From Acidobacteriota bacterium (GTDB lineage Bacteria; Acidobacteriota; UBA6911; RPQK01; CBDAPI01), in NCBI GenBank assembly GCA_965214465.1, contig CBDCBX010000021.1, positions 943,197-1,007,196 of the forward strand: a stretch of DNA of 64,000 nucleotides, read 5' to 3'. Shown piece by piece: positions 3,228 to 60,919 of this stretch. Positions within the stretch are counted from its first letter, which is position 1. The number at the start of each line of letters is the position of its first letter. The translations under genes and the position numbers were made by a program. The notes beneath the pieces were generated by a model that was given only the letters and a program-made list of their open reading frames with translations, searched no databases and was not told the DNA's origin.

Positions 3228-4136
3228 TTGATGATCACACGGTCACATCTCACACCCCGCTTGACTGTTTTCACCTCTTCCGTCTATCCCGACATTGTCC
3301 GCATCTGGAACGACTGCATTCGAAGCTCGCTGCCTGCAGAGGAGATTTGCGTGGAGGTCTTCTTCGACTCATCTTCAGACCGCCTTAACGACAGTATGCT
3401 TCCAGGTGCGACCATCTTGCGGAGAAATCGTAGGTGCCGGGATTTCCACGATGCGTATAACGAGGCTCTCGCGCGTGCCGCAACACCCTACCTCGCCTTC
3501 GTCGACACAGACGTTTTTTGGCTGTCGTCAGCCGTGTGGCCCCGCGCGCTCAAAGAACTCGAGCTCAACGAGGTGGCCGCTGTATCGTGTGTCTCTCGGA
3601 CAAACCGCGAAATTCCAGGGACATTTGCGGTGATTATGAAGACGGATGTCTATCGCCGGATCCTGGCTGAGGTTCCCGGTGGCTTCTATCCCGCGTTGGA
3701 GGGAATCGCTCCGGGAATAGCGCCAGAGCAGTGGAAACGATTCGATACCGGTGATCGGGCAGCCCGGGCCGTGGTGGAGGCCGGTTACGAAATCCGCCTG
3801 CTGAACCTGGATCAGCAAGGCGCGTTCGCCCGCTTCCATGGGCTTACACTCACGCGCCGGGCCTTGGAATGGATCGGCCCCGAAAACTTCCTCAAGGTAG
3901 CCGGCGACAGTTCCTACCATTGGACAGGGCTGGCGGGAAATGCGATCCTCAAGAAACTCCACGACCGCATCTATCCAGATGCCGGGTCCTTCGACTTCCC
4001 TTTTTCTCCCAGCTATGCTTGGCGCACGGCTTTGGGACATGGACGCACCACCATTCGTCGCTTGAAGATGCTGGGGCAACTCGCTCATGCGTCGCGCCGC
4101 ATAGAGCGTCGTGTTCGCACCCGGGACTTCCCATGA
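3228..4136 (+). CDS. DxD-motif nucleotide-sugar-transferase-like protein, paralog A
   Basis: A hydrophobic stretch is followed by D-T-D (AFVDTDVFW). No TM segments. Shares ordered motifs with the 6588..7598 protein (DxD, AAVS, DTGDRAA/PGDCAAISL, ARFHG/ADFHG). The stop overlaps the next start (ATGA at 4133-4136). Confidence 0.5.
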   Translation: MMITRSHLTPRLTVFTSSVYPDIVRIWNDCIRSSLPAEEICVEVFFDSSSDRLNDSMLPGATILRRNRRCRDFHDAYNEALARAATPYLAFVDTDVFWLSSAVWPRALKELELNEVAAVSCVSRTNREIPGTFAVIMKTDVYRRILAEVPGGFYPALEGIAPGIAPEQWKRFDTGDRAARAVVEAGYEIRLLNLDQQGAFARFHGLTLTRRALEWIGPENFLKVAGDSSYHWTGLAGNAILKKLHDRIYPDAGSFDFPFSPSYAWRTALGHGRTTIRRLKMLGQLAHASRRIERRVRTRDFP

Positions 4137-6307
4137 TTTTCCTCATCAACACAAAATCCACGCAGCCGTTCTGGCGACGCTTTCCGCTGTCGGTGATGGC
4201 CCTCGGTGCGGCCCTGCCACCGGAGGTGTCGTGGGAGATTTGGGACGGCAACAAGCCGGAACCGGATTTCGACAAACGACTGGTTGCCCGGGTTACGGCC
4301 GCGCAAAAAACGCCTGATCCCGTTACCCTTCTAGCCTTTAGTGTGATGCCGGGACCGCAACTTGCAAGCGCCGCCAGATTGTCCAGGTTGCTGAAGGCGC
4401 GTTTCCCGGAGATACCGATCGTATGGGGTGGCTATTTCCCCAGCCTGTATCCGAAACCTGTACTCAAGGCTCCCTATGTCGACTGGGTCATTCGCGGACA
4501 AGGGGAACGGACGCTGGCAGAGTTGCTGGAAGTCCTGAAGGGCCGGTGTGATGCTGCAAGGGTAGCCGGCCTGGCCTTCCGCAACGGCGGCGGCCATCGG
4601 ATCAACGAGGAGAGAGCCTGGACGGGTCCGAACGATTTTCCCTCTCCCCCCTACGACAGAATCGACGTGGATGGCTATTTAGGCCCGACTGCGTTGGGCC
4701 GCAGGAGCGGAGTCTATCAGGCCTCGATTGGTTGTCCGTACAAATGCAGTTTCTGCGGCGTGATCTCCGTATATGGCGGCGGCGAGAGGTTCGAGGATCC
4801 CGGCCGAACCGCTTCCAACCTCGACTATCTTGCCAAACGGCACGGAATGGATTCAGTGCACTTCTATGACAACAATTTCTTCCTCAGAGAATCGCACGCT
4901 GAGGAACTGTGCGAGCGACTGACCCCACTGCGCCTCAATTGGTGGTGTGAAACGCGGATCGACGGGATGTTGAGGTTCTCGGATGCAACCTGGAAAAAAA
5001 TTGAGAGGTCCGGTGCCCGCATGATTTTCTTTGGCGCCGAGTCCGGTTCCGACGCCGCGCTGCGGGCGATGTCGAAGAACCTCACCACGGCGCAGACCCT
5101 TGAGATCGCCCGGCGCCTGGCGCATACCACCATGGTCCCCGAATTCTCGTTTATGTTGGGAGGACCAGATGATCCGGAAGAGGAGATCTCGGCGACGTTC
5201 GACTTGATTCGTAAACTCAAACAGATTGATTGCCGCTCCGAAATTGTCTTTCATTACTACACTCCAATGCCGCGTGCGAATGGACTGGGGGAACAAGTCA
5301 GCTCGCCGGACGGGACGCCCGAGTCGATCGAAGAGTGGTGCGAACCGGACTGGGTCGAGTGGATGACCTTCGAGAAGCCGCGAACTGCATGGATGAATCG
5401 CCGTCTGTGGGATCGTGTCACCAATTTTCAATTGGTCCTGGAGAGCCGTTATCCTTCTATGCACTCTTCACGGATGAGTGGCTTGAGCGGCAAGCTCTTG
5501 GGGCGCATGGCACGGCGACGCTGGGATGAGGGGCGCTTCGAGAGACCGGTACTACTGCGTGTCGCGCGCAAATTGGCGCGTTTCGCTCCGAAAGACCCGC
5601 AGGCCTACGGCCATCTACGACCACCGCGTGAGGAGGAAAGAACCCTGTCGCCCCGCCAGGGCTATTGGCTGTGGGCCGCGACCTATGAGGGCCCCAACGG
5701 GATGACGCATCTCGATGATCTCGCGGTCAAGCGACTCTCACCCGGGAGTTTCAGCCGTCTCCTCGACGCAGGTTGCGGGACTGGCTGGCGCTTACCTGCA
5801 GCGGAGATGGGCTCGAGCATCGGCCTTGATATCGCGACCGAAATGCTGGCGATCGGCAAAGCCCGCGGTGAGACACGCTTACTCAACGCCGATGTCCGGG
5901 CACTGCCCTTCCAAAACGGTGAATTCGATCTGCTCTGGTGTCGTTTAGTGCTTTCGCATCTCGTGGACGCGGGGCAAGCCTACCTCGAACTGGGTCGTAC
6001 GGCAGCAACCGGGGCACCTTTGATCGTTACCGACATGCACTCAGACGCGATTCAGGCGGGATTCAAGACGACCTTCAAGGACCGTTCCGGCAGGACACGG
6101 TTCATCCAGATCCACGAGCGCACGATCGATGACCATGCACGCCTGGCCGCCGACGCTGGGTTTGAGCTCAGAGATACCGTGGAAAGTGCAATTGGGCCGG
6201 AGATCCGACGCTTCTTCGAAGATGCGGGCGAGCGGCATCTCTATGAGCGTCACCAGGGTCACAAGGTATTGCTGGCGATGAGATTTGTGAAGCGAGGGGC
6301 GTTGTGA
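4133..6307 (+). CDS. Fusion of a B12-binding radical SAM (class B) domain with a C-terminal class I SAM-dependent methyltransferase
   Basis: N-terminal Rossmann-like cobalamin-binding region (IPIVWGGYFPSLYP). Radical SAM CxxxCxxC motif (GCPYKCSFCGV). C-terminal methyltransferase motif I (LLDAGCGTGWRL) and post-I/II region (LPFQNGEFDLLWCRLVLSHL). The ORF-track start at 3869 is rejected in favour of the in-frame ATG at 4133, which overlaps the upstream stop. Confidence 0.8.
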   Translation: MIFLINTKSTQPFWRRFPLSVMALGAALPPEVSWEIWDGNKPEPDFDKRLVARVTAAQKTPDPVTLLAFSVMPGPQLASAARLSRLLKARFPEIPIVWGGYFPSLYPKPVLKAPYVDWVIRGQGERTLAELLEVLKGRCDAARVAGLAFRNGGGHRINEERAWTGPNDFPSPPYDRIDVDGYLGPTALGRRSGVYQASIGCPYKCSFCGVISVYGGGERFEDPGRTASNLDYLAKRHGMDSVHFYDNNFFLRESHAEELCERLTPLRLNWWCETRIDGMLRFSDATWKKIERSGARMIFFGAESGSDAALRAMSKNLTTAQTLEIARRLAHTTMVPEFSFMLGGPDDPEEEISATFDLIRKLKQIDCRSEIVFHYYTPMPRANGLGEQVSSPDGTPESIEEWCEPDWVEWMTFEKPRTAWMNRRLWDRVTNFQLVLESRYPSMHSSRMSGLSGKLLGRMARRRWDEGRFERPVLLRVARKLARFAPKDPQAYGHLRPPREEERTLSPRQGYWLWAATYEGPNGMTHLDDLAVKRLSPGSFSRLLDAGCGTGWRLPAAEMGSSIGLDIATEMLAIGKARGETRLLNADVRALPFQNGEFDLLWCRLVLSHLVDAGQAYLELGRTAATGAPLIVTDMHSDAIQAGFKTTFKDRSGRTRFIQIHERTIDDHARLAADAGFELRDTVESAIGPEIRRFFEDAGERHLYERHQGHKVLLAMRFVKRGAL

Positions 6308-6591
6308 GCGAAGATTTACGTAGCGAGACGGTGCTGGTTGAGGGGGAGTTTCGACGCGGCGAGAAATTTGGACCGGAAGCCGTTAACAAGGGGGCGATCC
6401 TGATGGACTGCGAGTGGGATGGCGGCATCTTTGAATCGGGCACAATGGTGGGTGGTATCTTTCGCTCCGGCATTTTCCGTGGCGGAACGGTCTATGGAAC
6501 CGTGTGGTTGGGAGGAGAGTGGATTGACGGCCGCTGGGAGGCCGGCTTCGATCAGACGGGGCGCTATCGGCCGAGGACCGATCATCCGTGA
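6304..6591 (+). CDS. Small Gly-rich repeat protein (95 aa), translationally coupled
   Basis: GTG start overlaps the upstream stop (GTGA at 6304-6307). The stop overlaps the next GTG start (6588-6591). Contains G-G-x-F/W repeats (GGIFESGTMVGGIFRSGIFRGGTVYGTVWLGGEWIDGRWEAG). Confidence 0.4.
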   Translation: MSEDLRSETVLVEGEFRRGEKFGPEAVNKGAILMDCEWDGGIFESGTMVGGIFRSGIFRGGTVYGTVWLGGEWIDGRWEAGFDQTGRYRPRTDHP

Positions 6592-7598
6592 GCGAAGCGA
6601 ACCATCCCCCGCGACTGCTCATCGCGAGCGCGCACCGCTACCCGGACCTGGCGCGTCTATGGTATCGGTACGTTTCGCGCGAAGTGGTCCCGGCATTCCG
6701 CGCCAAGGGCATGGAGGTCGAGACCCGGATCTTTCGGGACGCCAACGTAGAGGCCTTCAAGGCAGAACGCTTTTCCGAGGCTTTCCTCGACGCTCCGCGT
6801 GCAAAGGCCCGCGATTTCCTCGAATTCTACGACTCGGCGCTCGGACTTGACCACGACTTTATTCTATTCCTGGATGCTGATCTCTTCATCCTCGACGGAG
6901 AATGGGCCGCCGACTTCATCGACCGGTTCGAAGACCCCGATTTGGCAGCGGTTTCTCTGCTGAGAAGGTCGTCTCAGCCGGGGTTGTACGCTCTTCTTCT
7001 GCGAATAGCAAACTATCGGGCACTCCCGGAACCGGTCCTCGCTTGCCGCTATGACGGCCTCTCAGGGGAAGGACCCTGGGTCAATCATCAGCCGGGAGAT
7101 TGCGCCGCTATTAGCCTGCGCGCGGCGGGCCAGAGGATACTCGATGTCCCAGCGCAGGAGGCGCAAAGTCGACTCGCCGATTTCCATGGCACAACAGTCG
7201 TCAGAGCCTCGCGTGATCTCTTTGGCGTGTTCATCGGAGACCGCTTCGATCTCCTGGGCGCCGATCAGCGGTACTTCGCCATGAGCGCCTACGATAACGT
7301 ACTCCTGGGTGCGTTCTACCGGACACTCTACGGAGAACCGTTCGCCGCAGGCACGGGCGGAAAACACCTCAGCGGAAGCGTGACAGCGGAGTCGCTGCGT
7401 GAGAATCTGGCGCGCTGTCGCAGCTTGCGTTTGCTCCTGCGACTGACCAGCTACTTCGAGCGCTCAAAGCGGGCGCTGGCACGACTGGCGGCATACGAGG
7501 ATCTTCCCGTGCGGCCGCCGCGTGTTTTCTCGTTTGAGCGTGAGTTCATCTTCAGAGCAGCGATAATGATCCTGCCAAAACGCTGGACCCGGTGCTGA
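6588..7598 (+). CDS. DxD-motif nucleotide-sugar-transferase-like protein, paralog B
   Basis: FILFLDADLFILDG motif. Collinear similarity to the 3228..4136 product. Confidence 0.5.
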   Translation: MSEANHPPRLLIASAHRYPDLARLWYRYVSREVVPAFRAKGMEVETRIFRDANVEAFKAERFSEAFLDAPRAKARDFLEFYDSALGLDHDFILFLDADLFILDGEWAADFIDRFEDPDLAAVSLLRRSSQPGLYALLLRIANYRALPEPVLACRYDGLSGEGPWVNHQPGDCAAISLRAAGQRILDVPAQEAQSRLADFHGTTVVRASRDLFGVFIGDRFDLLGADQRYFAMSAYDNVLLGAFYRTLYGEPFAAGTGGKHLSGSVTAESLRENLARCRSLRLLLRLTSYFERSKRALARLAAYEDLPVRPPRVFSFEREFIFRAAIMILPKRWTRC

Positions 7599-7599
7599 C

Positions 7600-8571
7600 A
7601 TGGGTGTCCTGGCGCAGGTTAAGAAGTCTGTTAAGAGGCGGGCCTTCGGACACATCGAATTTGGGCTGTTTGGTCCTGTCGCTCTGCGTGACCCACAACA
7701 GGAGATCCGCGTTTGGCTCTGTGGCCTCGGGCCTCCCCGGGACGTGACCTATCGAAACGTCATAGCCAACTCCCGGCCCCACACGATCGGAATTGGCCTC
7801 GACGGTGCAGATCAGAGAATCGAATCATCGGGTGCCGGGGTTATGCTCAAGTTCGAGGAGCGTACAGGCCGCCAGCGCCCGCTCGGAGAAATCGACCTTG
7901 AATGGAAGGAGTCCATCGATTTGTCTGACGGGCAGGTGCTGCTTTTTCGCTCGCGGAGGTGCCGCAACTTTTGTCTGCCGAAGACGCTGCTATGGAGGCA
8001 ATACATGGGCTGGGCCTATCATCGCTGGCGTACGAGAAACCGCGACGACCCCGATCATCGGTTGTCCACGCGGGAAGTGCATGCCATGTTTGCATTCTAC
8101 ATTTGTCCGCGGCCGGTATTTCTGGTCAGCGTTGCAGACGGGGACAAGTCCAATATCTTTCCAATGGACCTTCTCGGCGTCATCGGTGCCGAGCGCTTCT
8201 CGCTGGCGTTCAAATGCACCAGTTCGGCCGTGCCCCTCTTGCAACGCTCGCGCCGCGCAGCGCTCGCTTCCGTACCCATTGAGCGAGCGGCTCTCGTCTA
8301 TCGATTAGGGCCCAATCACCGCAAAGCGGATTTCGATTGGGCTGAAGTCCCTTGCGGAGTGCTTGCGTCTCCGGCGTTCGGCTTGCCTGTTCCCGATTTT
8401 TCCCTGCGAGTCCGGGACGTGGAGGTTTCGGAGATCAGGAAACTGGGAAGTCACCAGTTCTTCATCTGCCGAATTGTCGAAGACCAGCGCCTGGCCGACG
8501 GGGAAGAGTTTTTTGAATCCCACTCCTTCTACCAGGAATGGAAGCAACGCACGCGTGACCGCTTCCGCTAA
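7600..8571 (+). CDS. Flavin-reductase-like (split-barrel) domain protein, possibly a tandem duplication
   Basis: The C-terminal half (VHAMFAFYICPRPVFLVSVADGDKSNIFPMDLLGVIG...SLAFKCTSSAVPLL...HQFFICRIVED) resembles the flavin reductase-like fold. Starts 2 nt after the upstream stop. Confidence 0.4.
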   Translation: MGVLAQVKKSVKRRAFGHIEFGLFGPVALRDPQQEIRVWLCGLGPPRDVTYRNVIANSRPHTIGIGLDGADQRIESSGAGVMLKFEERTGRQRPLGEIDLEWKESIDLSDGQVLLFRSRRCRNFCLPKTLLWRQYMGWAYHRWRTRNRDDPDHRLSTREVHAMFAFYICPRPVFLVSVADGDKSNIFPMDLLGVIGAERFSLAFKCTSSAVPLLQRSRRAALASVPIERAALVYRLGPNHRKADFDWAEVPCGVLASPAFGLPVPDFSLRVRDVEVSEIRKLGSHQFFICRIVEDQRLADGEEFFESHSFYQEWKQRTRDRFR

Positions 8572-9368
8572 TGATTACGTCATCCACAGCATTTGATGCC
8601 GCCGCCCACGACTATGACAGGGAGTTTTCGCATACGACGATTGGCCGGTATCTGCGCCGCGCGGTGCATGAGGAACTGGCCTGGGTCGGCTCCGGGGCGC
8701 GCCTTCTCGATCTTGGTGCGGGCACCGGCGAGGATGCGCTGTGGGCCGTTTCGCGGGGAAGCGACGTCGCCATAGTGGACGCGTCCGAGGCTATGCTGGC
8801 AAACGCCCGTGACAAGGCTCGCAAGGAAGGCGTGGACAGCCGGATTGAATTCCATCAACTGGATCTGAACGCCTGTGACCTCTCGCAAAGGTTCGATGCG
8901 GACAGCTTTGAGGGCGTGCTGTTGAACTTCGGCGTCTACAACTGCATTGAAGACGGTCCGCGCCTGGCGCGGACTCTAGCCCGGCTGACCAAGCAAGGCG
9001 GGTATTTGACACTGGTTGTGATGAGTCCGGTATGCCCGTGGGAGATCATCTGGCATCTGCTGCGGCTGTGTCCGCGTGACGCGTTCAGGCGCCTGAGGCG
9101 CAATCCAACGGTGCGGATAAAAGCTGGACCAGATGTTTCTGTTCGCTACCCGACGCCGCGGGCGGTGCGCCGCGAATTCGAGGGAGCATTTGACTTCGTG
9201 TCCCTGCGGGGTGTGGGAGCCTGTATCCCGCCTCCTTATCTGAATCGGATATTCGAAAGGCATCCCGGTATGCTGCGCCGGCTGTCGCGCTGTGAAGGAG
9301 CCATCTGCCACCGGTTTCCATGGACGTGGATGAATGACCACTACCTGATGTCGATGGTACGCCGTTGA
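8571..9368 (+). CDS. Class I SAM-dependent methyltransferase
   Basis: Motif I (LLDLGAGTGEDA), an acidic residue after beta-2 (VAIVDASEAM), and motif II-like (GVLLNFGVYNCIED). Overlaps the upstream stop (TAATG). Confidence 0.7.
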   Translation: MITSSTAFDAAAHDYDREFSHTTIGRYLRRAVHEELAWVGSGARLLDLGAGTGEDALWAVSRGSDVAIVDASEAMLANARDKARKEGVDSRIEFHQLDLNACDLSQRFDADSFEGVLLNFGVYNCIEDGPRLARTLARLTKQGGYLTLVVMSPVCPWEIIWHLLRLCPRDAFRRLRRNPTVRIKAGPDVSVRYPTPRAVRREFEGAFDFVSLRGVGACIPPPYLNRIFERHPGMLRRLSRCEGAICHRFPWTWMNDHYLMSMVRR

Positions 9369-9406: not shown

Positions 9407-10075
9407 CTACTCCGGATCGACACTCTCAGTTAGGCAGTTCGGTAGTGACGCCACCAGGCCCACGACGACCCAAATCATGACATAGGTGGGGGTAAAGGCC
9501 AGAAAGTGATCGAAGAGACCGTGGATCAAGAAAGCGGCGGTAGCTGCGCTGATCCCTAAGAAAAGCGAAAGCTCAGCGTCTCCCATTTTGCGCCATTGGG
9601 CACCCAGGATTGAAGTGACCCGCCAGACAAACCATAAGAAAAGGCCGCCGCCGACGAGCCCCGTCGTAGCAAAGAACTCCAGATACATGTTGTTGGCGTG
9701 AAGATCGCGCCTCCACCCCTTGAGGTCGAGATAGTTTCCGTAGAGCAGGCGAAAATTGTCTGGTCCCACACCCAGAAGGGGCCGGTCGAGTAGCATCCGC
9801 AGGGCACCTCGCCAAAGAGTAGGACGGGCCAGATCAAGCCTCGGTGTGGGGGCCGGGCCCAAAGGGATAAGCGGTGGTTCTACTCTTCTCTCCGCGCTCC
9901 CCTCGGCAGCGTAGATTTTGACCAGGGAGTGAGCTAAAGGGGCACCTGCCGTACTGAACCATAGACGGTGCTCCTGAACCAGGTCCCAGGCCAAGATGTA
10001 TTCTCCCGGATGTGGCGGAGCCAATATCCGAGCCTGGACCTGCAGGCTTTCTGTCGGTTCTACAGTCTGTCCTAA
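9407..10075 (-). pseudogene. O-antigen ligase / Wzy_C family gene, 3' portion separated from its 5' portion by IS copy 1
   Basis: Wzy_C hallmarks (LGVGPDNFRLLYGNYLDL...RRDLHANNMYLEFFATTGLVGGGLFLWFVW, conserved His in an HxNxY context). Abuts the left IS end at 10076. Confidence 0.55.
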
Positions 10076-11732
10076 CCCGGATTATGCATGAGATCTGAAT
10101 CCGAGTGAGATTTGGGCCCATAAAAAGAGCCGTAGCTCTCTGATATAAAAGGGTTTACACAAACAAGACCCTAACCAGGAGCTACGGCAATGTTAAGAGC
10201 AGTCTGCCAGAATACCCTGCCATTTCACAGCCACAGAAAGATCACGGCGCGTTTTGATGGGGGGAGCCTCACTTCCGACGCAGGATGGTTGTTGTTTGGA
10301 TCGGTGGATCGGCAACATCGGCTCTGCGAGGGCTTCAGTTCGTGTATTTCGGAGAGTCGAGACCAACGCTACATTCGTCATGATCTGTTGAAGTTGATCC
10401 GACAACGAGTCTTGCAGATCGTGGCCGGCTACGAAGACTGTAATGACGCCGATACGCTGCGCTCGGATCCGATGCTCAAAACCGTCTGTGATCAGTTGCC
10501 GGAGAGCGATCCGGATTTGGCCACGCAGCCGACTTTCTCCCGCTTGGAGAACTCCGTCACCAGGAAGGATCTGATGCGTTTGAGCCAGTGGCTGCTAGGC
10601 CGTTATGTGCGCTCCCTGAAGAAAAGACGTCCCGGTAAGATCATCCTGGATCTGGACAGTACCGACGACCATACCCACGGCCAGCAGGAGTTCTCCTTCT
10701 ACCACGGGTATTACCGAAGCCACATTCTGCATCCTTTGCTGATCTTCGATGCCGACACGGGAGACCTGGTGTGTGCCGTGTTGAGACCTGGCAACAAGGG
10801 AGCTGCCTCTCACATCGTGCCCATTCTGAAGCGAGTCGTGGAGGCTATCCGACAAGGAGTGGGGACGGATGTCGAGATTGAGATTCGGGCCGACAGCGGC
10901 TTTGCCACGCCGCGGCTCTACGAGTTCTGTGAGGCTGAAGAGAATCAACTCCAGTATGTCATTGGGTTAAGTCGAAACCCTCGCCTGCAGCGAGTGGTCG
11001 AGCCCCTGCTGGATTCGACTCGGGAAAGGTTCCTTGAGCTGGAGGAAAAACAGCGTCAGTTTGACGAGTTTCTTTATCGAGCCAACAGCTGGGATCGATC
11101 TCGTCGCGTCATCGTCAAAGTGGAGGTCGATCAGCGCGGGATCAATCGTCGCTTTGTGGTCACCAACCGGGACGATCTCTGCTCCCAATCACTTTATGAC
11201 CACTACACAAACCGAGGACAGACCGAAAACTTCATCAAGGCCTTCAAGAATCATCTGAGCATGGACCGACTCAGCTGTCATCGATTCCTGGCCAATCAGT
11301 TTCGACTCCTTCTGCATGCCCTGGCTTACCAGATGTTCGTGCGCCTGCGCGACTATCTGCACGGGACCCCCTGGCACAAGCTCGAAATCGAAACCTTACG
11401 TCGTCGTGTCCTCAAGATCGGGGCCCGGATCCGACAAACCACTCGACGCATCTGGGTCCATCTTTCCTCAGCCTTTCCCGAACAACCCCTCTTCCACCTC
11501 GTCTTGAGTCGCCTCAACTCCAGCTAGCCTCTCCCAGCTCCCAGCTCCCCGAAAAACCGCTTCCGATACTCACCCAGGCCCAGATCTGTCTGAAATTCAC
11601 TCCCCAACCACTTCAAACGCCTCGCCAACCGATATTCTTCGCAAATCCGCCTGTCACACCTGTCCGCTTTCGAGTTGAGCCACTTCTCGAGTCGTTTTTC
11701 AACTCCGGACTACGGTTCTTGCATAATCCGGG
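10076..11732 (+). mobile_element. IS element copy 1 (IS4/IS5 superfamily, 1657 bp)
   Basis: Terminal inverted repeats CCCGGATTATGCA (left 10076-, right ends 11732). 4-bp direct repeat CTAA at 10072-10075 and 11733-11736. Carries a single transposase ORF. Two further copies lie at 41355 and 52467. Confidence 0.85.
10190..11527 (+). CDS. DDE transposase (DDE_Tnp_1-type with YREK signature)
   Basis: 445 aa. The signature Y-x2-R-x3-E-x6-K is present (YTNRGQTENFIKAFK). AGGAG sits 8 nt upstream of the ATG. The product is 99-100% identical to the one encoded at 41469..42806. Confidence 0.85.
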   Translation: MLRAVCQNTLPFHSHRKITARFDGGSLTSDAGWLLFGSVDRQHRLCEGFSSCISESRDQRYIRHDLLKLIRQRVLQIVAGYEDCNDADTLRSDPMLKTVCDQLPESDPDLATQPTFSRLENSVTRKDLMRLSQWLLGRYVRSLKKRRPGKIILDLDSTDDHTHGQQEFSFYHGYYRSHILHPLLIFDADTGDLVCAVLRPGNKGAASHIVPILKRVVEAIRQGVGTDVEIEIRADSGFATPRLYEFCEAEENQLQYVIGLSRNPRLQRVVEPLLDSTRERFLELEEKQRQFDEFLYRANSWDRSRRVIVKVEVDQRGINRRFVVTNRDDLCSQSLYDHYTNRGQTENFIKAFKNHLSMDRLSCHRFLANQFRLLLHALAYQMFVRLRDYLHGTPWHKLEIETLRRRVLKIGARIRQTTRRIWVHLSSAFPEQPLFHLVLSRLNSS

Positions 11733-12816
11733 CTAATGGGGTCCGCACTCCCTCAAAGACCAGAGTCTGCTCTCCCTTCCGATCAAGCCAGTGATAGGAG
11801 AGTGCAAAAGCATTCTCTCCCTCCGATCGCCAGGGAGCCAGGCCGGTGTTCTTCACTCGGACTCGGACGAGGTTGTCGCTTCCGGGGGCAAGTTCTAGTT
11901 CTCCCGGAGCGTCATACTCGACCTGATACCCCGGGCTGGAGTCGATGCCCGTGAGTCTCAACCAGAACAACGGATTGCGCAGCAAACTCAATCCCAACAG
12001 AACTACCACCATTCCGGATATCCCTAGCAGCAGGCGAAGGCGGTCGTCAGCACCCTTACGAATCAGCCAAAAACCAGCGGCGAGAAGCGGCAAGATAAGA
12101 AGGAGAATCAGGCCAGCGCGAGTGAGCGTCACGATCGTCCCGGCCGCGATAAGCGTTGAGGAAAGAAAGAGTGCCGATCTCTGCCAGCGCCGAACCTGGC
12201 ACAGTAAAAGACCGATGGTCAATCCAAAGGCCAGTTCCAGGTACATGGAGGTGATGGTAGGATATTGAAGGGTCGAAGTGGCTCGCACCTGGTTCTTTAC
12301 AAATCCAGTGCCTGGGCGAAAAGCTTGCAGAAAGTCCAGCACCCACGCCACTTCGAAAGATTCCAGCACTCCTAGAGCAGCGACCACACAGGCGACAAGG
12401 GTGACGGCCACCATCAAGGCGACGAGTCGACGCCGGTGTGTGATGGTTTGCACTACCATGAAAAAGATAAGGACACCCGTTAGATAGCGGGCTGTGAACT
12501 GCAGGGAGTTCGCACGATGGGCTGAGGCCAAAAGCGAGGAGACAACCATCCATGCAAGCAGGCAGAGAATCGGCGAGGCCAACCTGGTTCGGACGACACG
12601 AGGTGGTTGGCCAACAGCGCGGGAGCCACTCCACGCGAGCAGACTGATGAGGATGACGAGTTCGAGGTTGGTTACCGCCTGCCAGGACACGGTAAAGACA
12701 GCCTCGAGTCGCTCAAAAGGGGCAGCCAGTACCAGGAGCAACAGGCCGGTATAAGGAAGTCGAGTCCGAAATGGTTTCCCTTCTCTTCTCAAATACCCGC
12801 CGGAACTCCACGGCAC
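11733..12816 (-). pseudogene. O-antigen ligase-like membrane protein, 5' portion interrupted by IS copy 1
   Basis: About 10 TM segments, then the start of a Wzy_C-like region (TIVTLTRAGLILLLILPLLAAGFWL) and a periplasmic loop. The reading frame runs into the IS right end, and the last residues are IS-encoded. Confidence 0.5.
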
Positions 12817-12937: not shown

Positions 12938-14281
12938 ATGAAAGAACGAGCCGTGCTTTACAACCCGAAAGCCGAATATTACACGATGCCACTCGCCTTG
13001 CTGGCTCTGGGTTCTGCCTTGGACCCGGCCCGCTATGAGGTGGTGGTCGTTGATGGGCGTCTGGAAAAGGACCCCCTAGGAAGAGTTCTCTCGCTGCTTG
13101 ACCGGGCGATTTGTCTTGGTGTCACGGTCCTCACGGGTTTCCCTATCCAAGACGCCCTGCGTGTCAGCCGGGCTGCCAGGTCGGCTCGACCGAGTCTGCC
13201 GGTGGTATGGGGAGGATGGCATCCTTCCCTGTTTGGAACCAAGTGTCTGGAGCAAGAAGGATCGATTGGCATCACGGTTCAAGGACAGGGAGAAGAAACC
13301 TTTCAAGACATATGTCGGCGGCCGAGGGGGTTGGAGGGAGTTGCGGGTTGCTCGTTTCGTCGGGATAAGGAGATTATCCACAACCCTCCAAGGCCCCTTC
13401 GGGATGTGAACAGCTTTCCTCGTCACCGATATGAACTGTTGGATCCGGAGCACTATTTTCGCTTTAAGGGGTGGCGGCAACTGGATTATATCTCTTCAAT
13501 TGGCTGCCGATTCCGCTGTGCCTTCTGCGCCGATCCGACCATCTATGAGAGGAAGTGGTTTGGACTGGATCCGGAGCGAATTGGAGAAGAAGTCGAATTC
13601 CTATGGAAAAAATACAGATTCGAAGACTTAAACTTCCAGGACGAAACCTTCTTTACCAAGAGCACGAGAGTCACTGCAATCGCTGAAGAGTTCCTTCGCC
13701 GGAGAGTCAAAATCAGTTGGGCCGGGACACTTCGTGCCGACCAAGGCGTGCGCCTCTCTGAAGATGACTTTCGAAAGTGCAGGGAATCTGGCCTGCGGAG
13801 AGTCATGATCGGGGTCGAGTCGGGCTCTGTGGAAATGCTGAAGTGGATGAAGAAAGATATCCAGTTGACTGAAGTATTCAAGACGGCGGAGATGTGTCTT
13901 CGGCATGGTGTTGCGGCAATTTTTCCTTTTATTGTCGGTTTTCCCGATGAGCCTGAAGAGAGCGTAAACGAAACTCTTAGAGTGGCGTACCAGCTACGCT
14001 CGATGAGCCCGAATTTCGAGATTCAGATCTTCTTCTATTCGCCTTACCCTGGCTCTCCCATAACGACACACGCCGAAAAGGCCGGTTTCCCAATCCCAGA
14101 CACTCTCGAACAGTGGGCCAGGTTCGACTTTAGCAAGTGGGGACCGTGGGTCGATTCAAAGAAACGTCGCCGCGTCGAAGTCTTTCAGTTTTGCCAGCGT
14201 TTGGCCGGACGTCAGAGTTCCCTCTGGACCAGATCGATTCAGGCCCTGGCTCGCTGGCAATGCCAACGACTGATTGGCTGA
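12938..14281 (+). CDS. B12-binding domain-containing radical SAM protein (class B)
   Basis: LPVVWGGWHPSLFG cobalamin-binding-like segment. Radical SAM motif CRFRCAFCAD. Paralogous to the N-terminal two-thirds of the 4133..6307 product. Confidence 0.8.
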   Translation: MKERAVLYNPKAEYYTMPLALLALGSALDPARYEVVVVDGRLEKDPLGRVLSLLDRAICLGVTVLTGFPIQDALRVSRAARSARPSLPVVWGGWHPSLFGTKCLEQEGSIGITVQGQGEETFQDICRRPRGLEGVAGCSFRRDKEIIHNPPRPLRDVNSFPRHRYELLDPEHYFRFKGWRQLDYISSIGCRFRCAFCADPTIYERKWFGLDPERIGEEVEFLWKKYRFEDLNFQDETFFTKSTRVTAIAEEFLRRRVKISWAGTLRADQGVRLSEDDFRKCRESGLRRVMIGVESGSVEMLKWMKKDIQLTEVFKTAEMCLRHGVAAIFPFIVGFPDEPEESVNETLRVAYQLRSMSPNFEIQIFFYSPYPGSPITTHAEKAGFPIPDTLEQWARFDFSKWGPWVDSKKRRRVEVFQFCQRLAGRQSSLWTRSIQALARWQCQRLIG

Positions 14282-14398
14282 CCTGGCGGAAGGGTACCCA
14301 GGATCCCGATCGACTCTCCCTCCTGCAGCAATCAGGCCAAAGGTGGTCCAGGTCACCACGATTACAGGGGTGAATTCCTAATTTCCTTGCCTGAAACT

Positions 14399-14430
14399 TG
14401 TGGCCACAAATAAGTATAATGTGGACACAT
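14399..14430 (+). promoter_or_regulatory. Toxin-antitoxin promoter/operator. A palindrome TGTGGCCACA and a near-palindrome ATGTGGACACAT bracket a consensus -10 TATAAT.
   Basis: TGTGGCCACA at 14399-14408, TATAAT at 14415-14420, ATGTGGACACAT at 14419-14430. GAGG RBS at 14434-14437, then ATG at 14447. Confidence 0.5.
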
Positions 14431-14446
14431 TTTGAGGCATCACTTC

Positions 14447-14701
14447 ATGACCACATCTGTGAGAGAACTGAAGGACCATCTGAGCAAGTATCTTCGGCGC
14501 GTTCAGAGCGGGGAGGAGGTGATCATCACTTCTCACCGTCGGCCGGTTGCCAAACTGGTCCCCCTCTCCGGAGACGAGACAGACGACTGCCAGAGCTTTT
14601 TCGACGGTCTCCAGGATCTTCGCGCACAGTTCAATGGGGAAGTAAAAGGCACTCCACTGAGCCAGATCGTGATCGAAATGCGTGAGGAAGAGCGCGATTG
14701 A
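14447..14701 (+). CDS. Phd/YefM-family type II antitoxin
   Basis: MTTSVRELKDHLSKYLRRVQSGEEVIITSHRRPVAKLVPL is the canonical Phd/YefM N-terminus. The upstream TTG start at 14432 is rejected in favour of ATG 14447, which has an RBS. The stop overlaps the toxin start by 4 nt. Confidence 0.75.
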   Translation: MTTSVRELKDHLSKYLRRVQSGEEVIITSHRRPVAKLVPLSGDETDDCQSFFDGLQDLRAQFNGEVKGTPLSQIVIEMREEERD

Positions 14702-15132
14702 GGGTCTACCTTGACACCAGCCTGCTGGTTGCCGTCTATGTTCCGGAGAGTCTGACGGGCAAAGTCCTTCAGCTTCTCAAGGAGCCGATCATCGTTTTCG
14801 TTTCAAGTCTGGTTGAGGTCGAACTCCACTCTGCCCTGTCAAGAAAACTTCGCATGGGGGAACTCCGAGCCAGTCAATGCCGCCGCATCACGGGGTTGTT
14901 TGATCGTCACCTCCGAGAAACCCGGTACCAGCGCCTGACCATCTCACCGGCAGCGTTCACGACGGCGGCAGACTTTCTCCGTGACTTCTCGACTCCTCTG
15001 CGTACGCTGGATGCATTGCACGTGGCTTGCTCCTTTCACACCGAAACGACTCTCTTCACAGCGGACGCGACCGCGACACTGAGCAGGGCGGCTTCCCATT
15101 TCGAAGTTCCCTGCAAGTTGCTGGCATCCTGA
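14698..15132 (+). CDS. vapC: PIN-domain toxin (VapC-like)
   Basis: MRVYLDTSLLVAVY places the first PIN acidic residue at position 6. Further D/E residues are spaced as in VapC. 144 aa. Confidence 0.7.
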   Translation: MRVYLDTSLLVAVYVPESLTGKVLQLLKEPIIVFVSSLVEVELHSALSRKLRMGELRASQCRRITGLFDRHLRETRYQRLTISPAAFTTAADFLRDFSTPLRTLDALHVACSFHTETTLFTADATATLSRAASHFEVPCKLLAS

Positions 15133-15155
15133 GCAGACCTGTGAAAGAAACACAC

Positions 15156-17219
15156 ATGCTTATGAACTTCACCGCCTCCATTGTTTGTGTCATCGCCTTC
15201 CTGACCGCACTCCAGGGCCAGGAAATATCTACCGAGCGGCGCCCGATTCAGGTGGATGATCTGTTTGTGATCAAGAGAGTCGGGAATCCTCAGTTCAGCC
15301 CGGACAGCGGCTGGGTGGCCTACACGGTCAGCGGGTCGAGCCTGGAGAGTGACAGTTCCCAGACCAGCATCTGGATGGCATCCACCAGCGACGGCGCCGA
15401 GATCCGAATGACGGGCAAAGGGACCTCCGGAACCCAGCCCCGCTGGAGCCCGGACGGGAAATACCTGTCCTTTCGATCGGGACGCGCGGAAGGCGAATTC
15501 CAGGGTTCGAACCAGTCGAGCCGATCCCAGGTGTGGCTGCTGGATCGCCGGGGCGGAGAGGCCCGGCAACTCACCGACATTGCACAGGGAGTCAGCGGCC
15601 ATGAGTGGTCACCCGATGGAAGACAACTGGTGCTCCTGATCAAAGATCCAAAACCTGGTGACATTGAGAATGGAGAAAGGACCGCCGGGAAACCCGAACC
15701 CTGGGTGATCGACCGGCTGCAGTTCAAGAGAGATCGAATCGGCTACCTCGACCGGTTCCGGACACACCTGTATTTGTTTGACCTGAAGAGCGGAGAAACC
15801 CGCCAGCTCACGTTTGGTGACTACGACGACTCCGAACCCGTCTGGAGCCCCGATGGGAAGTGGATCGCCTTTGTCAGCAACCGGACCGAGGAACCCGATG
15901 CCAACAGTAATTCGGATATCTGGGTCGTCTCCACCGTGACCCGGGAGACCCGGCCCTCGCCCAGACAGATCACAACGAATCCCGGATCCGATACGAACCC
16001 GGCCTGGAGTCCGGATGGAAAGTACCTGGCTCATGTGACGATCACGCGCCCCGACCTGATCTGGTACGCAGGACGCAAGCTGGCTATCTCTCCCTTTGCC
16101 GGCGGAAGGGCTGAAATTCTGACCGCCGACCTGGACCGCAACGTGAGCCAGCCCCGCTTCGATCCCGACGGCAAAGCCATCTATTTTCGGGCCGAAGACG
16201 GCCGCGCGTATCACCTGGCCCGGCTGCAACTGGAGACCCGACAACTCACCCGGCCTGTGGGTGGCAAACGGATGGTTTCAGCCTTCACTATGAGCCCGGC
16301 TGGCCGGCTGGCAATCCTGAAGAGTGAGCCCCATCAGCCGGGGGAGGTCTTCCTGGTCAACCACCTGCCCCGCCAGCTCAGCTTCAGAAACCGGGGGCTG
16401 CTGAATCGTCTCAAGCTGGGAGAAGTCGAGGGCATTCAATTTGCCAGCCAGGATGGTACCCGGATCGAGGGGTTTGTGGTGAAGCCTCCCGACTTCGTGG
16501 AAGGTCGGCGCTATCCCACCCTGCTTCGGATCCACGGCGGACCTGTGTTTCAGTTCTTCTTTGACTTCAACTTCGAAGCCCAGTTCTTCGCCGCTCAGGG
16601 ATACCTGGTGGTCTTGGCCAATCCACGTGGCTCCTCCGGCTACGGTCAGGACTTTGCCATGGGGATCTGGCAGGCCTGGGGTCAGAAGGACTTCGAGGAT
16701 GTGATGGCCGCCGTGGATCACGCCGTCGAGAAGGGATGGGCTGATCCTGAGAGGCTGGGCGTGGGAGGATGGTCGTACGGGGGGATTCTGACCAACTATG
16801 TGATCACTCAGACGGATCGATTCAAAGCCGCGATTACGGGAGCCAGCGAGGTTCTTTACGTCGCCAACTACGGGCATGATCACTACCAGTTTCAGTGGGA
16901 AAAGGAACTGGGTCTTCCCTGGGAAAATCGTGAGCTCTGGGAGCGACTCTCCCCCTTCAACTACGTGGAGAAGATTGTGACTCCCACTCTGATCATGGGA
17001 GGCGAGAAGGACTGGAATGTCCCGATTCTCAACTCCGAGCAGCTCTATCAGGCTCTGAAACGGCTGGGTCGCGAGACGCTTCTGGTGGTCTACCCTGGAG
17101 AGTCTCATGGGGGGATTCGCCGCCCCACCTTCCTGAAGGATCGTCGCTTGAGGGCGCTGGGCTGGTACGACAAGTACCTGAAAGGGAGGCAGCCCGATAC
17201 CACGGGAGGTCACCCATGA
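15156..17219 (+). CDS. S9-family serine peptidase (prolyl oligopeptidase / acylaminoacyl-peptidase type) with an N-terminal beta-propeller
   Basis: Signal peptide (MLMNFTASIVCVIAFLTALQG). Repeated SPDG(K/R) propeller blades. Catalytic nucleophile elbow GGWSYGG. C-terminal alpha/beta hydrolase region with ...GESHGG. Confidence 0.85.
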   Translation: MLMNFTASIVCVIAFLTALQGQEISTERRPIQVDDLFVIKRVGNPQFSPDSGWVAYTVSGSSLESDSSQTSIWMASTSDGAEIRMTGKGTSGTQPRWSPDGKYLSFRSGRAEGEFQGSNQSSRSQVWLLDRRGGEARQLTDIAQGVSGHEWSPDGRQLVLLIKDPKPGDIENGERTAGKPEPWVIDRLQFKRDRIGYLDRFRTHLYLFDLKSGETRQLTFGDYDDSEPVWSPDGKWIAFVSNRTEEPDANSNSDIWVVSTVTRETRPSPRQITTNPGSDTNPAWSPDGKYLAHVTITRPDLIWYAGRKLAISPFAGGRAEILTADLDRNVSQPRFDPDGKAIYFRAEDGRAYHLARLQLETRQLTRPVGGKRMVSAFTMSPAGRLAILKSEPHQPGEVFLVNHLPRQLSFRNRGLLNRLKLGEVEGIQFASQDGTRIEGFVVKPPDFVEGRRYPTLLRIHGGPVFQFFFDFNFEAQFFAAQGYLVVLANPRGSSGYGQDFAMGIWQAWGQKDFEDVMAAVDHAVEKGWADPERLGVGGWSYGGILTNYVITQTDRFKAAITGASEVLYVANYGHDHYQFQWEKELGLPWENRELWERLSPFNYVEKIVTPTLIMGGEKDWNVPILNSEQLYQALKRLGRETLLVVYPGESHGGIRRPTFLKDRRLRALGWYDKYLKGRQPDTTGGHP

Positions 17220-17495
17220 ACACACCCCTGCTCCAGAGCAGATACCGGAGAACAGTGATGACCTGGCTCGGCTCCTGCGGCTGGCACTCGACAAAGTGGC
17301 CTTTCTCCCCTTCGGGCTGCTCGTCGATCGGTGGCGATGGAAGGTGTTCTCCGGCGAAACACCTCCTGATCGGCACATCCGGATCTGGTGGGAACTCGTG
17401 GAGAAGTATGAAGCAGTGGCTGGACGCGCAAAACAAGGGTCAGACCTGCGGCTGGTAGCTTGCAGCGTCACCCCCCATCCGTTACCCTTTCGGCG

Positions 17496-17975
17496 ATGCC
17501 GAGACGCCCCAGCCTTCGCTACTGCATTCTTTTTCTGCTGGCATCGACCTGGCTGTTCTTGATTGTTTCCCCATCTCTGCTGGCCGCAAGATATCCTCTG
17601 CCGGTCGGTGCCGTTTATTACTTTTTCTCTCAAGTGTGCCGCCAGATCCCAGACCGGAGCTTTCACTGGGCGGGGGCTCAAATGGCCGTCTGTCACCGCT
17701 GCCTGGGTATTTACCTGGGCTTCTGGCTCGGAGTCCTGTGCTGGCCCGGCCTCGGACGTCTGGGCCAACGACTGCTCGACCGGCCACGGCTGATCCTGCT
17801 TCCGGCCGCGCTGCTGCTCCTGAACGCCCTGACGCCGAACTCACCCTTTGATCGCGTGGTCACGGGCCTGCTCGCTGGTTTTCCAGTGGCCCTGTTTGTG
17901 TGGATTGGATTTGAACAGCTCTTGGCCGTCCCCCCAGGATCCGAATCTCGAGGAGAATCGCATGTACTCAGCTAA
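17496..17975 (+). CDS. DUF2085-family membrane protein
   Basis: The conserved CHRCLGIY motif sits between TM helices. Contains four TM segments. Confidence 0.5.
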   Translation: MPRRPSLRYCILFLLASTWLFLIVSPSLLAARYPLPVGAVYYFFSQVCRQIPDRSFHWAGAQMAVCHRCLGIYLGFWLGVLCWPGLGRLGQRLLDRPRLILLPAALLLLNALTPNSPFDRVVTGLLAGFPVALFVWIGFEQLLAVPPGSESRGESHVLS

Positions 17976-28364: not shown

Positions 28365-28432
28365 GTCGAATCCTCCCTGGGTATGGTTAACGACGGGATC
28401 TTATGGAGCGGGACGGGGATTGTCAAAGAAAT

Positions 28433-28457
28433 GGGTTCTGGGTTCTGGGTTTGGGGG
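28433..28457 (+). repeat. (GGGTTCT)n G-quadruplex motif in the divergent promoter region
   Basis: GGGTTCTGGGTTCTGGGTTTGGGGG. It is the inverted partner of the repeat at 27273-27303. Confidence 0.6.
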
Positions 28458-28523
28458 TTGGAGTTCCCGGATTGCAGCTTCGGAGGGAACCGGCTAGAGT
28501 TAAGGCAGGCCCTTCACCGTACG

Positions 28524-47830: not shown

Positions 47831-47860
47831 TTCAACTCAGTCCCGTACATCTGGTACTCA

Positions 47861-50849: not shown

Positions 50850-50853
50850 AGAG

Positions 50854-54916: not shown

Positions 54917-54925
54917 GCTTCCTGC

Positions 54926-60916: not shown

Positions 60917-60919
60917 CGG

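Follow-up and report, generated by a model that had tools for sequence, protein, structure and literature searches.

The window analyzed here is a 64-kb stretch of DNA from an uncultured soil bacterium. The features considered in this study are as follows, with six consecutive open reading frames (ORFs) referred to as A to F and a later one as H.

A, 3228..4136, plus strand: GT-A/GT2-like protein with a Pfam match, 302 aa when read from TTG 3228; paralogue of D, with DTD as the DxD motif
B, 4133..6307, plus strand: 724-aa fusion of B12-binding, radical SAM, and class I methyltransferase (MT) domains (Pfam and NCBIfam)
C, 6304..6591, plus strand: 95-aa Gly/aromatic-repeat protein, conserved, with fusions to A- and D-type proteins
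D, 6588..7598, plus strand: glycosyltransferase-like protein of 336 aa, with a GT-A fold and, at the C terminus, a helical domain; the DxD motif is D96-A-D98
E, 7600..8571, plus strand: 323-aa protein of two domains, beta at the N terminus and split-barrel flavin reductase at the C terminus (fold comparison)
F, 8571..9368, plus strand: 265-aa class I SAM methyltransferase (Pfam), orthologous to the first of the MTs (272 aa) in the canonical cluster described below
Wzy-like gene, 9407..12816, minus strand: Wzy_C/O-antigen-ligase-like membrane protein (Pfam Wzy_C on 9407-10024)
Insertion sequence (IS), 10076-11732: 1.66-kb element splitting the Wzy-like gene, with its transposase at 10190-11527
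H, 12938..14281, plus strand: second B12-binding radical SAM protein, 447 aa (Pfam B12-binding and Radical_SAM)

Genes A to F form one translationally coupled six-ORF operon (3228-9368). As read from the DNA, the junctions are ATGA at 4133-4136 (A/B), GTGA at 6304-6307 (B/C), GTGA at 6588-6591 (C/D), TGA-C-ATG with a 1-nt gap at 7599 (D/E), and TAATG at 8569-8573 (E/F), all of them as given in an earlier note on this DNA, which had described six overlapping or abutting genes. The frame of B is nested in a longer mechanical ORF (3869-6307), and the likely start of A is ATG 3231 (301 aa), the one called in the related locus L001. All six ORFs are intact. The operon is identical in independent assemblies, and its genes recur in similar neighborhoods in other phyla, so the arrangement is beyond chance. 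Membrane segments are predicted in none of the six proteins, which are presumably cytoplasmic. Every domain call of the earlier note was borne out by HMMs or by fold, and its failure to find a characterized pathway was repeated here, since the system matched no curated family or characterized pathway.

The tridomain protein B and the methyltransferase F

Three Pfam domains are found in the single polypeptide of B: B12-binding (PF02310; 44.4 bits, cutoff 32.1, residues 65-132), Radical_SAM (PF04055; 47.7 bits, cutoff 29.5, residues 199-359), and Methyltransf_11 (50.2 bits, cutoff 21.2, residues 544-628). The tridomain fusion claimed in the earlier note therefore holds, with the length corrected from 725 to 724 aa. 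The CPYKCSFC motif occupies residues 201-208 (nucleotides 4733-4756), and its three cysteines (Cys201, Cys205, and Cys208; CxxxCxxC) are invariant in 21 homologues. As in QCMT, TokK, CysS, and BchE, an N-terminal B12-binding Rossmann domain is followed by a radical SAM barrel, and on the presence of both domains B is assigned to the cobalamin-dependent (class B) radical SAM superfamily, whose members, most of them uncharacterized, catalyze alkylations that rank among the hardest in biology. B differs from these enzymes in an extension specific to its family (about 120 aa), which follows the radical SAM core and runs to about residue 497, and in the attached class I MT.

The Pfam matches of the MT domain lie within about residues 532-680, the NCBIfam matches begin at residue 527, and motif I (LLDAGCGTGW) corresponds to residues 543-552 (nucleotides 5759-5788). 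Judged by sequence, this domain and F are both class I SAM-dependent methyltransferases with a Rossmann-like fold and a GxGxG motif I. F matches Methyltransf_25 (56 bits, cutoff 27), as expected from the earlier description of it as a second SAM methyltransferase; its best NCBIfam model, CpaM, is far under threshold (69 bits, cutoff 180). F is 34% identical to the 272-aa MT of locus L088 and 35% identical to the 275-aa MT of L006, and F-like MTs adjoin B12-radical SAM genes in most related loci.

None of the curated NCBIfam models for B12-radical SAM enzymes (BchE, HpnJ, HpnR, PhpK, ApyD, QCMT, BzaD, and ladderane) was reached by B. The best was BchE (110.7 bits, cutoff 481), with HpnJ scoring close to it; ApyD gave 84 bits (cutoff 750), HpnR gave 60 bits (cutoff 650), and the remaining scores were about 4- to 10-fold under their cutoffs. 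By sequence, the nearest relatives of B among solved structures include TokK and QCMT (PDB accession number 9CCB), the nearest being QCMT, a protein methylase. Those of the MT domain include enzymes annotated as sugar-modifying, the D-glucose O-MT 6uv6 and dTDP-aminosugar N,N-dimethyltransferases. No description of a fusion between a B12-radical SAM protein and a class I MT was found in the literature searched.

The glycosyltransferase-like proteins, their small partner, and protein E

Both A and D resemble glycosyltransferases, with a GT-A fold and a DxD motif, and they are predicted to be sugar transferases. The two are 25% identical (E=6e-19) with their DxD positions aligned, which agrees with the earlier view of them as paralogous transferase-like proteins. 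The HMM classification that the earlier note had proposed for the pair places A barely over the Glycos_transf_2 threshold (PF00535; 25.3 bits, cutoff 23.3) and D under it (17.5 bits). The GT-A fold with its DxD motif was found in D, whose Asp residues are conserved. In comparison with the GT-A enzymes of family GT2 (BcsA catalytic domain, GlfT2, PcManGT, and SpsA), identity is only 7-15%, and D carries an extra helical C-terminal domain; its family is tiny (225 proteins) and unnamed. A, which lacks a transmembrane segment, always co-occurs with C and D.

C contains 18 Gly in 95 residues, arranged in roughly 10-residue GGxFxxGxFx units, and is probably a small β-solenoid. No match was found for it in Pfam, NCBIfam, or the PDB sequences, and its relatives amount to just 25 representative clusters at E<1e-10. 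It is conserved end to end (54-65% identity between phyla), with 17 invariant positions between residue 11 and residue 61. C is fused to A in five proteins (P0243, P0244, P0249, P0251, and P0258), is found joined to A-type and D-type proteins in either order, and also lies within NTP_transf_5-C-A and sulfatase-C-A proteins. The glycine-repeat character noted earlier is thus real, but C is a conserved folded partner domain of A and D that always travels with them, and not a free peptide. A role as a RiPP precursor is not supported, as C is uniformly conserved, has no leader/core split, and forms an internal domain of glycosyltransferase-like and other enzymes. Nor was C taken for a pentapeptide-repeat protein, there being no Pfam match, with sub-threshold Pentapeptide_4 matches confined to distant multi-repeat relatives. 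We know of no characterized GT2 enzyme with an obligatory small β-solenoid-like partner of this kind.

The Flavin_Reduct match of E (PF01613) is sub-threshold (23.6 bits, cutoff 27), many of its homologues have a precomputed PF01613 match, and fold comparison identifies a split-barrel FMN-binding fold, which bears out the flavin-reductase-like assignment made earlier. Relative to the two-component flavin reductases PheA2, HpaC, and SgcE6 and the corrin reductase CobR, E is extended by an N-terminal β domain of about 120 aa. Unlike PheA2, HpaC, and SgcE6, E is tied not to a monooxygenase but to B12-radical SAM clusters, including clusters with 4-5 such proteins, and to a glycosyltransferase-like protein, being covalently joined to D as one protein in a relative. 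We propose E as a candidate electron donor.

Related clusters and the downstream genes

The radical SAM family of B comprises thousands of proteins from abundant, mostly uncultured soil bacteria, the majority in metagenome-assembled genomes labelled Gemmatimonadota and Acidobacteriota. The comparison of neighborhoods around homologues of the fusion, likewise suggested earlier, shows the radical SAM and MT parts as a single ORF in L001-L005 and as two adjacent genes in 22 other loci, which belong to Gemmatimonadota and Acidobacteriota (at least two phyla); the two are neighbors in nearly all relatives. L006 encodes a separate 233-aa MT, a clear orthologue of the C-terminal domain of B. The fused orthologues form 8 clusters (68-90% identity, 719-726 aa, plus one 682-aa partial), and by these comparisons the fusion is lineage-specific, restricted to relatives at about 68-73% identity or more. 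'Rosetta-stone' fusions of this kind (radical SAM-MT, glycosyltransferase-reductase, and C-glycosyltransferase) reveal which proteins of the cluster work together.

The canonical order, seen in Thermoanaerobaculia, is HprK-like / rSAM / MT / MT / rSAM(B1) / MT(B2) / amidohydrolase / C / D / A. The operon, together with H, is a compacted, lineage-specific version of this widespread uncharacterized cluster type of soil Gemmatimonadota and Acidobacteriota, which is built of repeated pairs of B12-radical SAM and class I MT genes, one pair being fused as B in this lineage. Class I MTs are as numerous as radical SAM proteins in related clusters, or more so. Several canonical genes are missing from the window. 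The HprK-related kinase and NTP_transf_5 genes that mark HPr-rel-A/HprK-related kinase cassettes are likewise absent from these 64 kb, and in relatives they give weak partial matches only (30-35 bits, cutoff 200). Glycan genes occur near the clusters of L005 (two GT4 and AlgX), L006 (Wza/Wzc/Wzi), L091 (two GT4, a sulfotransferase, and acyltransferase_3), and L090 (GT87), and none were found in the contexts of L003/4, L088, and L089.

H probably belongs to the same system as A to F: its orthologues (52-56% identity) lie inside the L005 and L013 clusters beside F-like MTs. H reached no NCBIfam family, its top models being HpnJ (115 bits, cutoff 577) and BchE. The Wzy-like gene, which is convergent with the operon and encodes multiple transmembrane segments, only possibly belongs to the system; it is intact in L001/L002 (540-582 aa), and other lineages do not keep it beside the module. 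Apart from the IS insertion, the window and L001 are 99.8% identical, and the 4 bases common to both alignment blocks are a target duplication. Two further copies of the IS are present in the window.

Proposed function and alternatives

With slightly less than even confidence, we favor a system that assembles a sugar-containing product in the cytoplasm and decorates it heavily with methyl groups, coupling class I methylation to B12-radical chemistry. A and D, each with C, would transfer sugars from nucleotide sugars to an acceptor in the cytoplasm or at the membrane face. A hydroxyl, amine, or carboxyl group would be methylated by the class I MTs, namely F and the C-terminal domain of B. The B12-radical SAM domains, those of H and of the N-terminal part of B, would then act by radical chemistry on or beside the methylated position, either by C-methylation or alkyl extension, as CysS does after CysF, or by a non-methylating reaction, as BchE does after BchM. 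The fusion in B may channel the two steps, and E, with reduced flavin, may reactivate cob(II)alamin, the [4Fe-4S] cluster, or both. A glycoside or glycan bearing many methyl groups would result.

In cystobactamid biosynthesis, the methyl group placed by the class I O-MT CysF is extended by the B12-radical SAM enzyme CysS, and cob(II)alamin requires an external electron (PMC12846815); BchE needs a dedicated low-potential redox partner (PMC13598231). The CysF/CysS precedent fits both the obligatory adjacency or fusion of radical SAM and MT genes and the presence of E. The operon differs from CysF/CysS in that specific homology is not detectable, an NRPS or carrier-protein context is lacking, the partner proteins are glycosyltransferase-like, and the order and site of the reactions are inferred. 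With respect to BchM/BchE, B is far under the BchE cutoff and there are no other bch genes nearby.

A glycan product is suggested by the glycan genes near related clusters, by the Wzy_C gene next to the operon here, and by the sugar-modifying relatives of the MT domain, and the earlier note's overall interpretation, in which two methylation chemistries and sugar-transferase-like proteins tailor a glycoconjugate or lipid, is partly supported. Against a glycan stand the Wzy-like gene, which is unconserved and IS-split, the missing glycan genes in several contexts, and the GT2 Pfam scores, marginal for A and sub-threshold for D. The operon itself holds no genes for sugar-nucleotide synthesis, a flippase, or export.

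Part of the evidence against the favored reading is shared with its alternatives. BchE and HpnJ, the top models, are not methylases, so the B12-radical SAM domains might instead perform another radical reaction (cyclization, oxidation, or rearrangement) on a substrate that the MTs have first methyl-esterified or O-methylated, as BchE, itself no methylase, does with the methyl ester produced by BchM (PMC13598231). The supply of class I MTs, at least equal in number to the radical SAM proteins, agrees with this; however, most characterized B12-radical SAM enzymes are methylases (PMC12846815) and the BchE score of B is far below its cutoff, and we regard this alternative as possible but doubtful. 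Being about mechanism, it can be combined with any class of target. Unlikely in our view is a RiPP-like system, in which the radical SAM proteins and MTs methylate a ribosomal peptide or small protein, possibly C, and A and D glycosylate it. HprK-related, NTP_transf_5, and SPASM radical SAM genes are common in peptide-tailoring cassettes; in related clusters the first gene encodes a P-loop protein related to HprK and NTP_transf_5 is also present, which counts against the sugar-product reading, and one such cluster has a SPASM radical SAM protein. The kinship of B with the protein methylase QCMT, the ApyD and rSAM_ocin RiPP models among its matches, and the small size and mid-operon position of C point the same way. 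On the other hand, every RiPP model score is far under its cutoff, no RRE/PqqD, protease, or exporter was found in the window, and C, conserved throughout without a leader/core split, is an internal or terminal enzyme domain in both orders.

Lipid tailoring, with radical SAM/MT pairs methylating or cyclizing a hopanoid or a membrane-spanning or branched lipid and A and D adding a sugar head group, is very unlikely: the HpnJ, HpnR, and ladderane models score on par with any other, many B12-radical SAM enzymes work on lipids, and the taxonomic range is that of soil Acidobacteriota and Gemmatimonadota, but those scores are about 4- to 10-fold under the cutoffs, a lipid-synthesis gene occurs in 0 of roughly 10 annotated contexts, A to F lack membrane segments, and the searched literature on brGDGT and archaeal lipid radical SAM enzymes draws no link to the family of B. 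It is hardly credible that the fusion or operon arose as an artefact of assembly or is a functionless remnant in decay, as the IS copies, the split Wzy-like gene, and the missing canonical genes might suggest. This is largely refuted by the same 724-aa protein in ENA, NCBI, and Logan assemblies, by the fused orthologues in 8 clusters, and by the intact, coupled ORFs with conserved catalytic motifs.

If the favored coupling of class I methylation to radical chemistry is true, B offers a single polypeptide for studying a polar-to-radical methyl hand-over, E is a candidate physiological reductant for B12-radical SAM enzymes, usually missing in vitro, and A or D with C represents a new two-component glycosyltransferase architecture. 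Soil biofilms or biomarkers might then involve the product, which could be a methylated glycan or glycolipid. A more specific proposal, quite unlikely as it stands, is that the pairs are a dedicated two-step alkylation device that decorates a sugar polymer or glycolipid with branched alkyl groups (ethyl, isopropyl, or tert-butyl ether) or with C-methyl groups. The device would be served by a previously unrecognized two-component glycosyltransferase (GT-A plus C as a β-solenoid subunit) and by a cobalamin/FeS reductase of its own that depends on flavin. If so, the dominant soil phyla Gemmatimonadota and Acidobacteriota would share a widespread, unrecognized pathway. Gentamicin-type networks reportedly combine the B12-radical SAM C-methylases GenK and GenD1, class I N/O-MTs, and glycosyltransferases on a sugar scaffold. 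A comparable set of enzyme types is present here, with no specific homology and no aminocyclitol or aminotransferase genes, and its hosts are uncultured soil Gemmatimonadota/Acidobacteriota-like bacteria.

Operon organization and the fusion protein B

The region at positions 3228-9368 of the window holds six ORFs (A to F), all on the plus strand, which form a coupled operon. The overlapping or abutting gene boundaries claimed in the earlier note are present as described when the junctions are read from the DNA:

4133-4136, plus strand: ATGA, junction of A and B
6304-6307, plus strand: GTGA, junction of B and C
6588-6591, plus strand: GTGA, junction of C and D
7599, plus strand: 1-nt gap in TGA-C-ATG, junction of D and E
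8569-8573, plus strand: TAATG, junction of E and F

The mechanical ORF of B begins at 3869; its start is ATG 4133, as placed by the gene calls in related assemblies and by the overlap with A, and gives a protein of 724 aa. The start of A is probably ATG 3231. HMM classification of each operon protein, a check proposed in the earlier note, was run with Pfam and gave B12-binding, Radical_SAM, and Methyltransf_11/25 matches in B, so that the predicted combination of three domains in one protein was recovered. Class I methyltransferase (MT) domains were matched in F, Glycos_transf_2 in A (just over the cutoff) and in D (under the cutoff), and Flavin_Reduct in E (under the cutoff); the 95-aa Gly-repeat protein C had no Pfam, NCBIfam, or PDB sequence match. 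A and D share 25% identity (E = 6e-19) with their DxD motifs aligned and are thus paralogues, as had been supposed. Membrane segments were predicted in none of the six proteins. In the operon region, the promoter and terminator scan yielded no excess over shuffled sequences, and the Rfam and tRNA scans gave no match.

The same exact 724-aa B protein is present in the ENA, NCBI, and Logan assemblies. Among the candidates scored, 5,676 proteins match B at E ≤ 0.001; fused orthologues make up 8 clusters only (68-90% identity), and the next 112 matches (55-61% identity) are about 500 aa long and have no domains other than B12-binding and Radical_SAM, the named ones being mostly from Gemmatimonadota MAGs. 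In the related locus L006, a 233-aa MT encoded on its own comes after the radical SAM (rSAM) gene and is a clear orthologue of the C-terminal domain of B. The arrangement of the rSAM part (B1) and the MT part (B2) was scored in 34 loci; the two are a single ORF only in L001-L005 and separate neighboring genes in 22 loci (gaps mostly 12-137 nt), and B2 is missing only beside more distant rSAMs. MAGs with the split pair are labeled Gemmatimonadota, Thermoanaerobaculia, Terriglobia, and a few Proteobacteria. It follows from this distribution that B is a gene fusion of a conserved rSAM and MT pair; the fusion is real but lineage-specific.

None of the six operon proteins nor H, a second B12-rSAM (447 aa; 12938-14281, plus strand), reaches the cutoff of any NCBIfam model; the BchE model gives 110.7 bits against B (cutoff 481), and the HpnJ model gives 115 bits against H (cutoff 577). 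The best solved relative of B by sequence is 9CCB (E = 1.6e-12), which according to a review is QCMT, the MCR glutamine C-methyltransferase. For the MT domain, annotated sugar-modifying MTs (the D-glucose O-MT 6uv6 and dTDP-aminosugar N,N-dimethyltransferases) are among the closest solved relatives, but with E-values that are generic.

Protein C as a partner of A and D, and the link of D to E

C is conserved over its full length, with 54-65% identity between phyla, and 17 positions, a Cys and a WDGGxFExG motif among them, are invariant across 15 diverse sequences. In an exhaustive HMMER search, no more than 25 representative clusters reached E < 1e-10, and many of these are fusions:

P0244 and P0258: C-A
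P0243, P0249, and P0251: A-C
P0256: C-D
P0241: NTP_transf_5-C-A
P0265: sulfatase family-C-A

C, D, and A co-occur in all nine loci that have any one of them. From these sequence relationships we conclude that C is a folded domain that partners A and D rather than a peptide substrate on its own; a role as a RiPP precursor was rejected as the leading reading, given the uniform conservation and the fusions to enzymes. The fold is probably a small beta-solenoid. The weaker matches to C are long proteins with many repeats that score below threshold for pentapeptide-repeat models. L087 (Thermoanaerobaculia) has two C genes, one before D and the other, on the opposite strand, before A (the two stretches are 11036-12204, minus strand, and 9723-11026, plus strand), a layout that suggests a C subunit of its own for each glycosyltransferase (GT)-like paralogue.

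D and E are one 662-aa ORF at 12458-14446 of L003, and the same is seen in L004; B is 78% identical there, F is missing at the operon end, and A is called shorter. The family of E comprises 282 proteins, the few with source names being from Acidobacteria/Terriglobales MAGs. PDB sequence searches with D and with E gave no match. By fold, D is a GT-A protein and E carries a split-barrel flavin-reductase domain. The clusters in which homologues of E reside encode four or five B12-rSAMs along with several MTs; one of these clusters also contains two GT4 genes, NTP_transf_5, an HprK-like gene, a sulfotransferase, and an acyltransferase_3.

Related clusters and the version in the window

The neighborhood comparison that had been suggested for the fusion protein was run as a local tblastn search in which the proteins of the window were compared with every locus retrieved, and it recovered recurrent related clusters. 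Their core consists of a different B12-rSAM, an F-like MT, another MT, and then B1 and B2. In Thermoanaerobaculia, the order is HprK-related-like protein, B12-rSAM, MT (the F orthologue), MT, B1, B2, TRZ/ATZ-deaminase-type amidohydrolase, C, D, and A. In L005 and L013, orthologues of H (52-56% identity) lie within these clusters as well; the present analysis extends the system to H as a probable member. The window is without the HprK-like, amidohydrolase, and NTP_transf_5 genes, the first rSAM (rSAM-X), and the second MT of the canonical clusters; the locus is therefore a reduced, rearranged version, which has gained E and the B fusion.

The amidohydrolase is found at 8641-9720 of L088, 8642-9721 of L087, and 12272-13375 of L006, and its matches include a 5'-deoxyadenosine deaminase model. 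Since related deaminases also act on SAH and MTA, the enzyme may remove inhibitory by-products of SAM in these clusters with their high demand for SAM. Many related clusters open with a protein of 340-380 aa (L088, 2376-3410; L087, 2366-3388; L006, 5745-6815; L091, 15519-16658; L089, 8416-9921) that has only a weak match, in the P-loop region, to the HprK-related kinases A/B and ScmC. The L089 protein (501 aa) is seemingly fused to a C domain, and NTP_transf_5 genes frequently accompany this opener.

All components can be assigned to known superfamilies (class B rSAM, class I MT, GT-A, or split-barrel flavin reductase) but to no curated or characterized family, and the families of C and D are small and unnamed. 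The literature searches turned up no account of a B12-rSAM/class I MT fusion, of a two-component GT-A/C unit, or of this cluster type. We rate the cluster family as biosynthetic, built from known enzyme classes, uncharacterized, and with informative natural fusions. What the analysis adds to the earlier note is the restriction of the fusion to one lineage, the wider family of conserved clusters, a role for C, the link of D to E, and the extension to H. The operon, which comes from an uncultured organism, is of value to radical-SAM enzymologists and to work on natural products of soil microbes.

Proposed chemistry, alternative targets, and genomic surroundings

In the pathway that we propose, A and D, each with C, would be nucleotide-sugar-dependent transferases with an acceptor that is cytoplasmic or at the membrane face. 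The class I MTs would methylate at O, N, or carboxyl groups, after which the B12-rSAMs would act on or beside the methylated positions; E would serve as the electron donor for cob(II)alamin and/or the FeS cluster. Precedents for a class I MT acting first and a B12-rSAM second come from two published systems. CysF methylates a hydroxyl group and CysS extends the methoxy group to ethoxy, isopropoxy, or butoxy, with an external electron required for cob(II)alamin (PMC12846815); BchM forms a methyl ester, and BchE, which has a dedicated redox partner, then carries out non-methylating radical chemistry on this ester (PMC13598231).

The most likely target is a glycan or glycoside, as supported by the GT-A proteins and by glycan genes next to several related clusters: GT4 and AlgX (L005), Wza/Wzc/Wzi (L006), GT87 (L090), GT4, sulfotransferase, and acyltransferase_3 (L091), and Wzy_C in the window. 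Such neighbors vary and are absent from several related contexts (L003/L004, L088, and L089), and because of this inconstancy we put the reading at slightly short of an even chance. The structural description in the earlier note is correct, and the glycoconjugate or lipid tailoring that it proposed is reasonable, though unproven. That the rSAMs perform radical chemistry other than methylation, which would fit any target class, is a possible minority explanation. Modification of a RiPP or protein is unlikely: similarities to QCMT and ApyD and the HprK-like, NTP_transf_5, and SPASM genes of relatives speak for it, whereas the properties of C argue against it and the window is without an RRE, a protease, or an exporter. 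Lipid tailoring draws on matches to HpnJ, HpnR, and ladderane models, all equally weak, and on the taxa involved, and on nothing else; with no lipid gene linked to the clusters and no connection in the literature searched, it is very unlikely. An artifact or a decaying locus has next to no probability, given that the assemblies are independent, the ORFs intact, and the motifs conserved.

Apart from a 1.66-kb insertion sequence (IS), the window matches L001, a 5.68-Mb metagenomic contig, at 99.8% identity. Three copies, 98.5-99.3% identical, are present:

10076 (or 10070) to 11732: IS copy 1, transposase ORF 10190-11527 (DDE_Tnp_1_4)
41349-43004: IS copy 2, transposase ORF 41469-42806 (DDE_Tnp_1_4)
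52464-54108: IS copy 3, inside the polysaccharide locus

Copy 1, which L001 lacks, interrupts a Wzy_C/O-antigen-ligase-like gene; this gene converges on the operon and is whole in L001 and L002. Copy 1 is therefore implied to have transposed recently in this strain, and a target duplication is indicated because 4 bases are common to both alignment blocks flanking it. In L005 (a relative with 73% identity), the E gene is in fragments around an IS21-type insertion (rve/Mu-transposase and IstB; 13437-17965), another case of IS activity within the cluster family.

H is immediately followed by a PhdYeFM antitoxin/PIN toxin pair (14447-15132, plus strand), annotated from L001 and placed on the window by coordinate offset, and then by an S9 prolyl-oligopeptidase-family protein with PD40 repeats (15027-17219). 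A 724-aa ORF at 20686-22860 (plus strand), preceded with an overlapping junction by a TPR protein (19343-20689), was weighed as a paralogue of B because of its equal length and rejected, as it matches no Pfam domain and shows no similarity to B. Two RHS-repeat proteins (28032-36307, plus strand; 1539 and 1209 aa, the first also with DUF6531) are probably polymorphic toxins. A classical polysaccharide locus lies 37 kb from the operon:

46250-63948, minus strand: Wzz/Wzc-like tyrosine-kinase protein, Bac_transf initiating transferase, three GT4, three GT2, a second Wzy_C, and an ABC ATPase

The Bac_transf ORF of this locus has an N-terminal Transposase_mut fragment.
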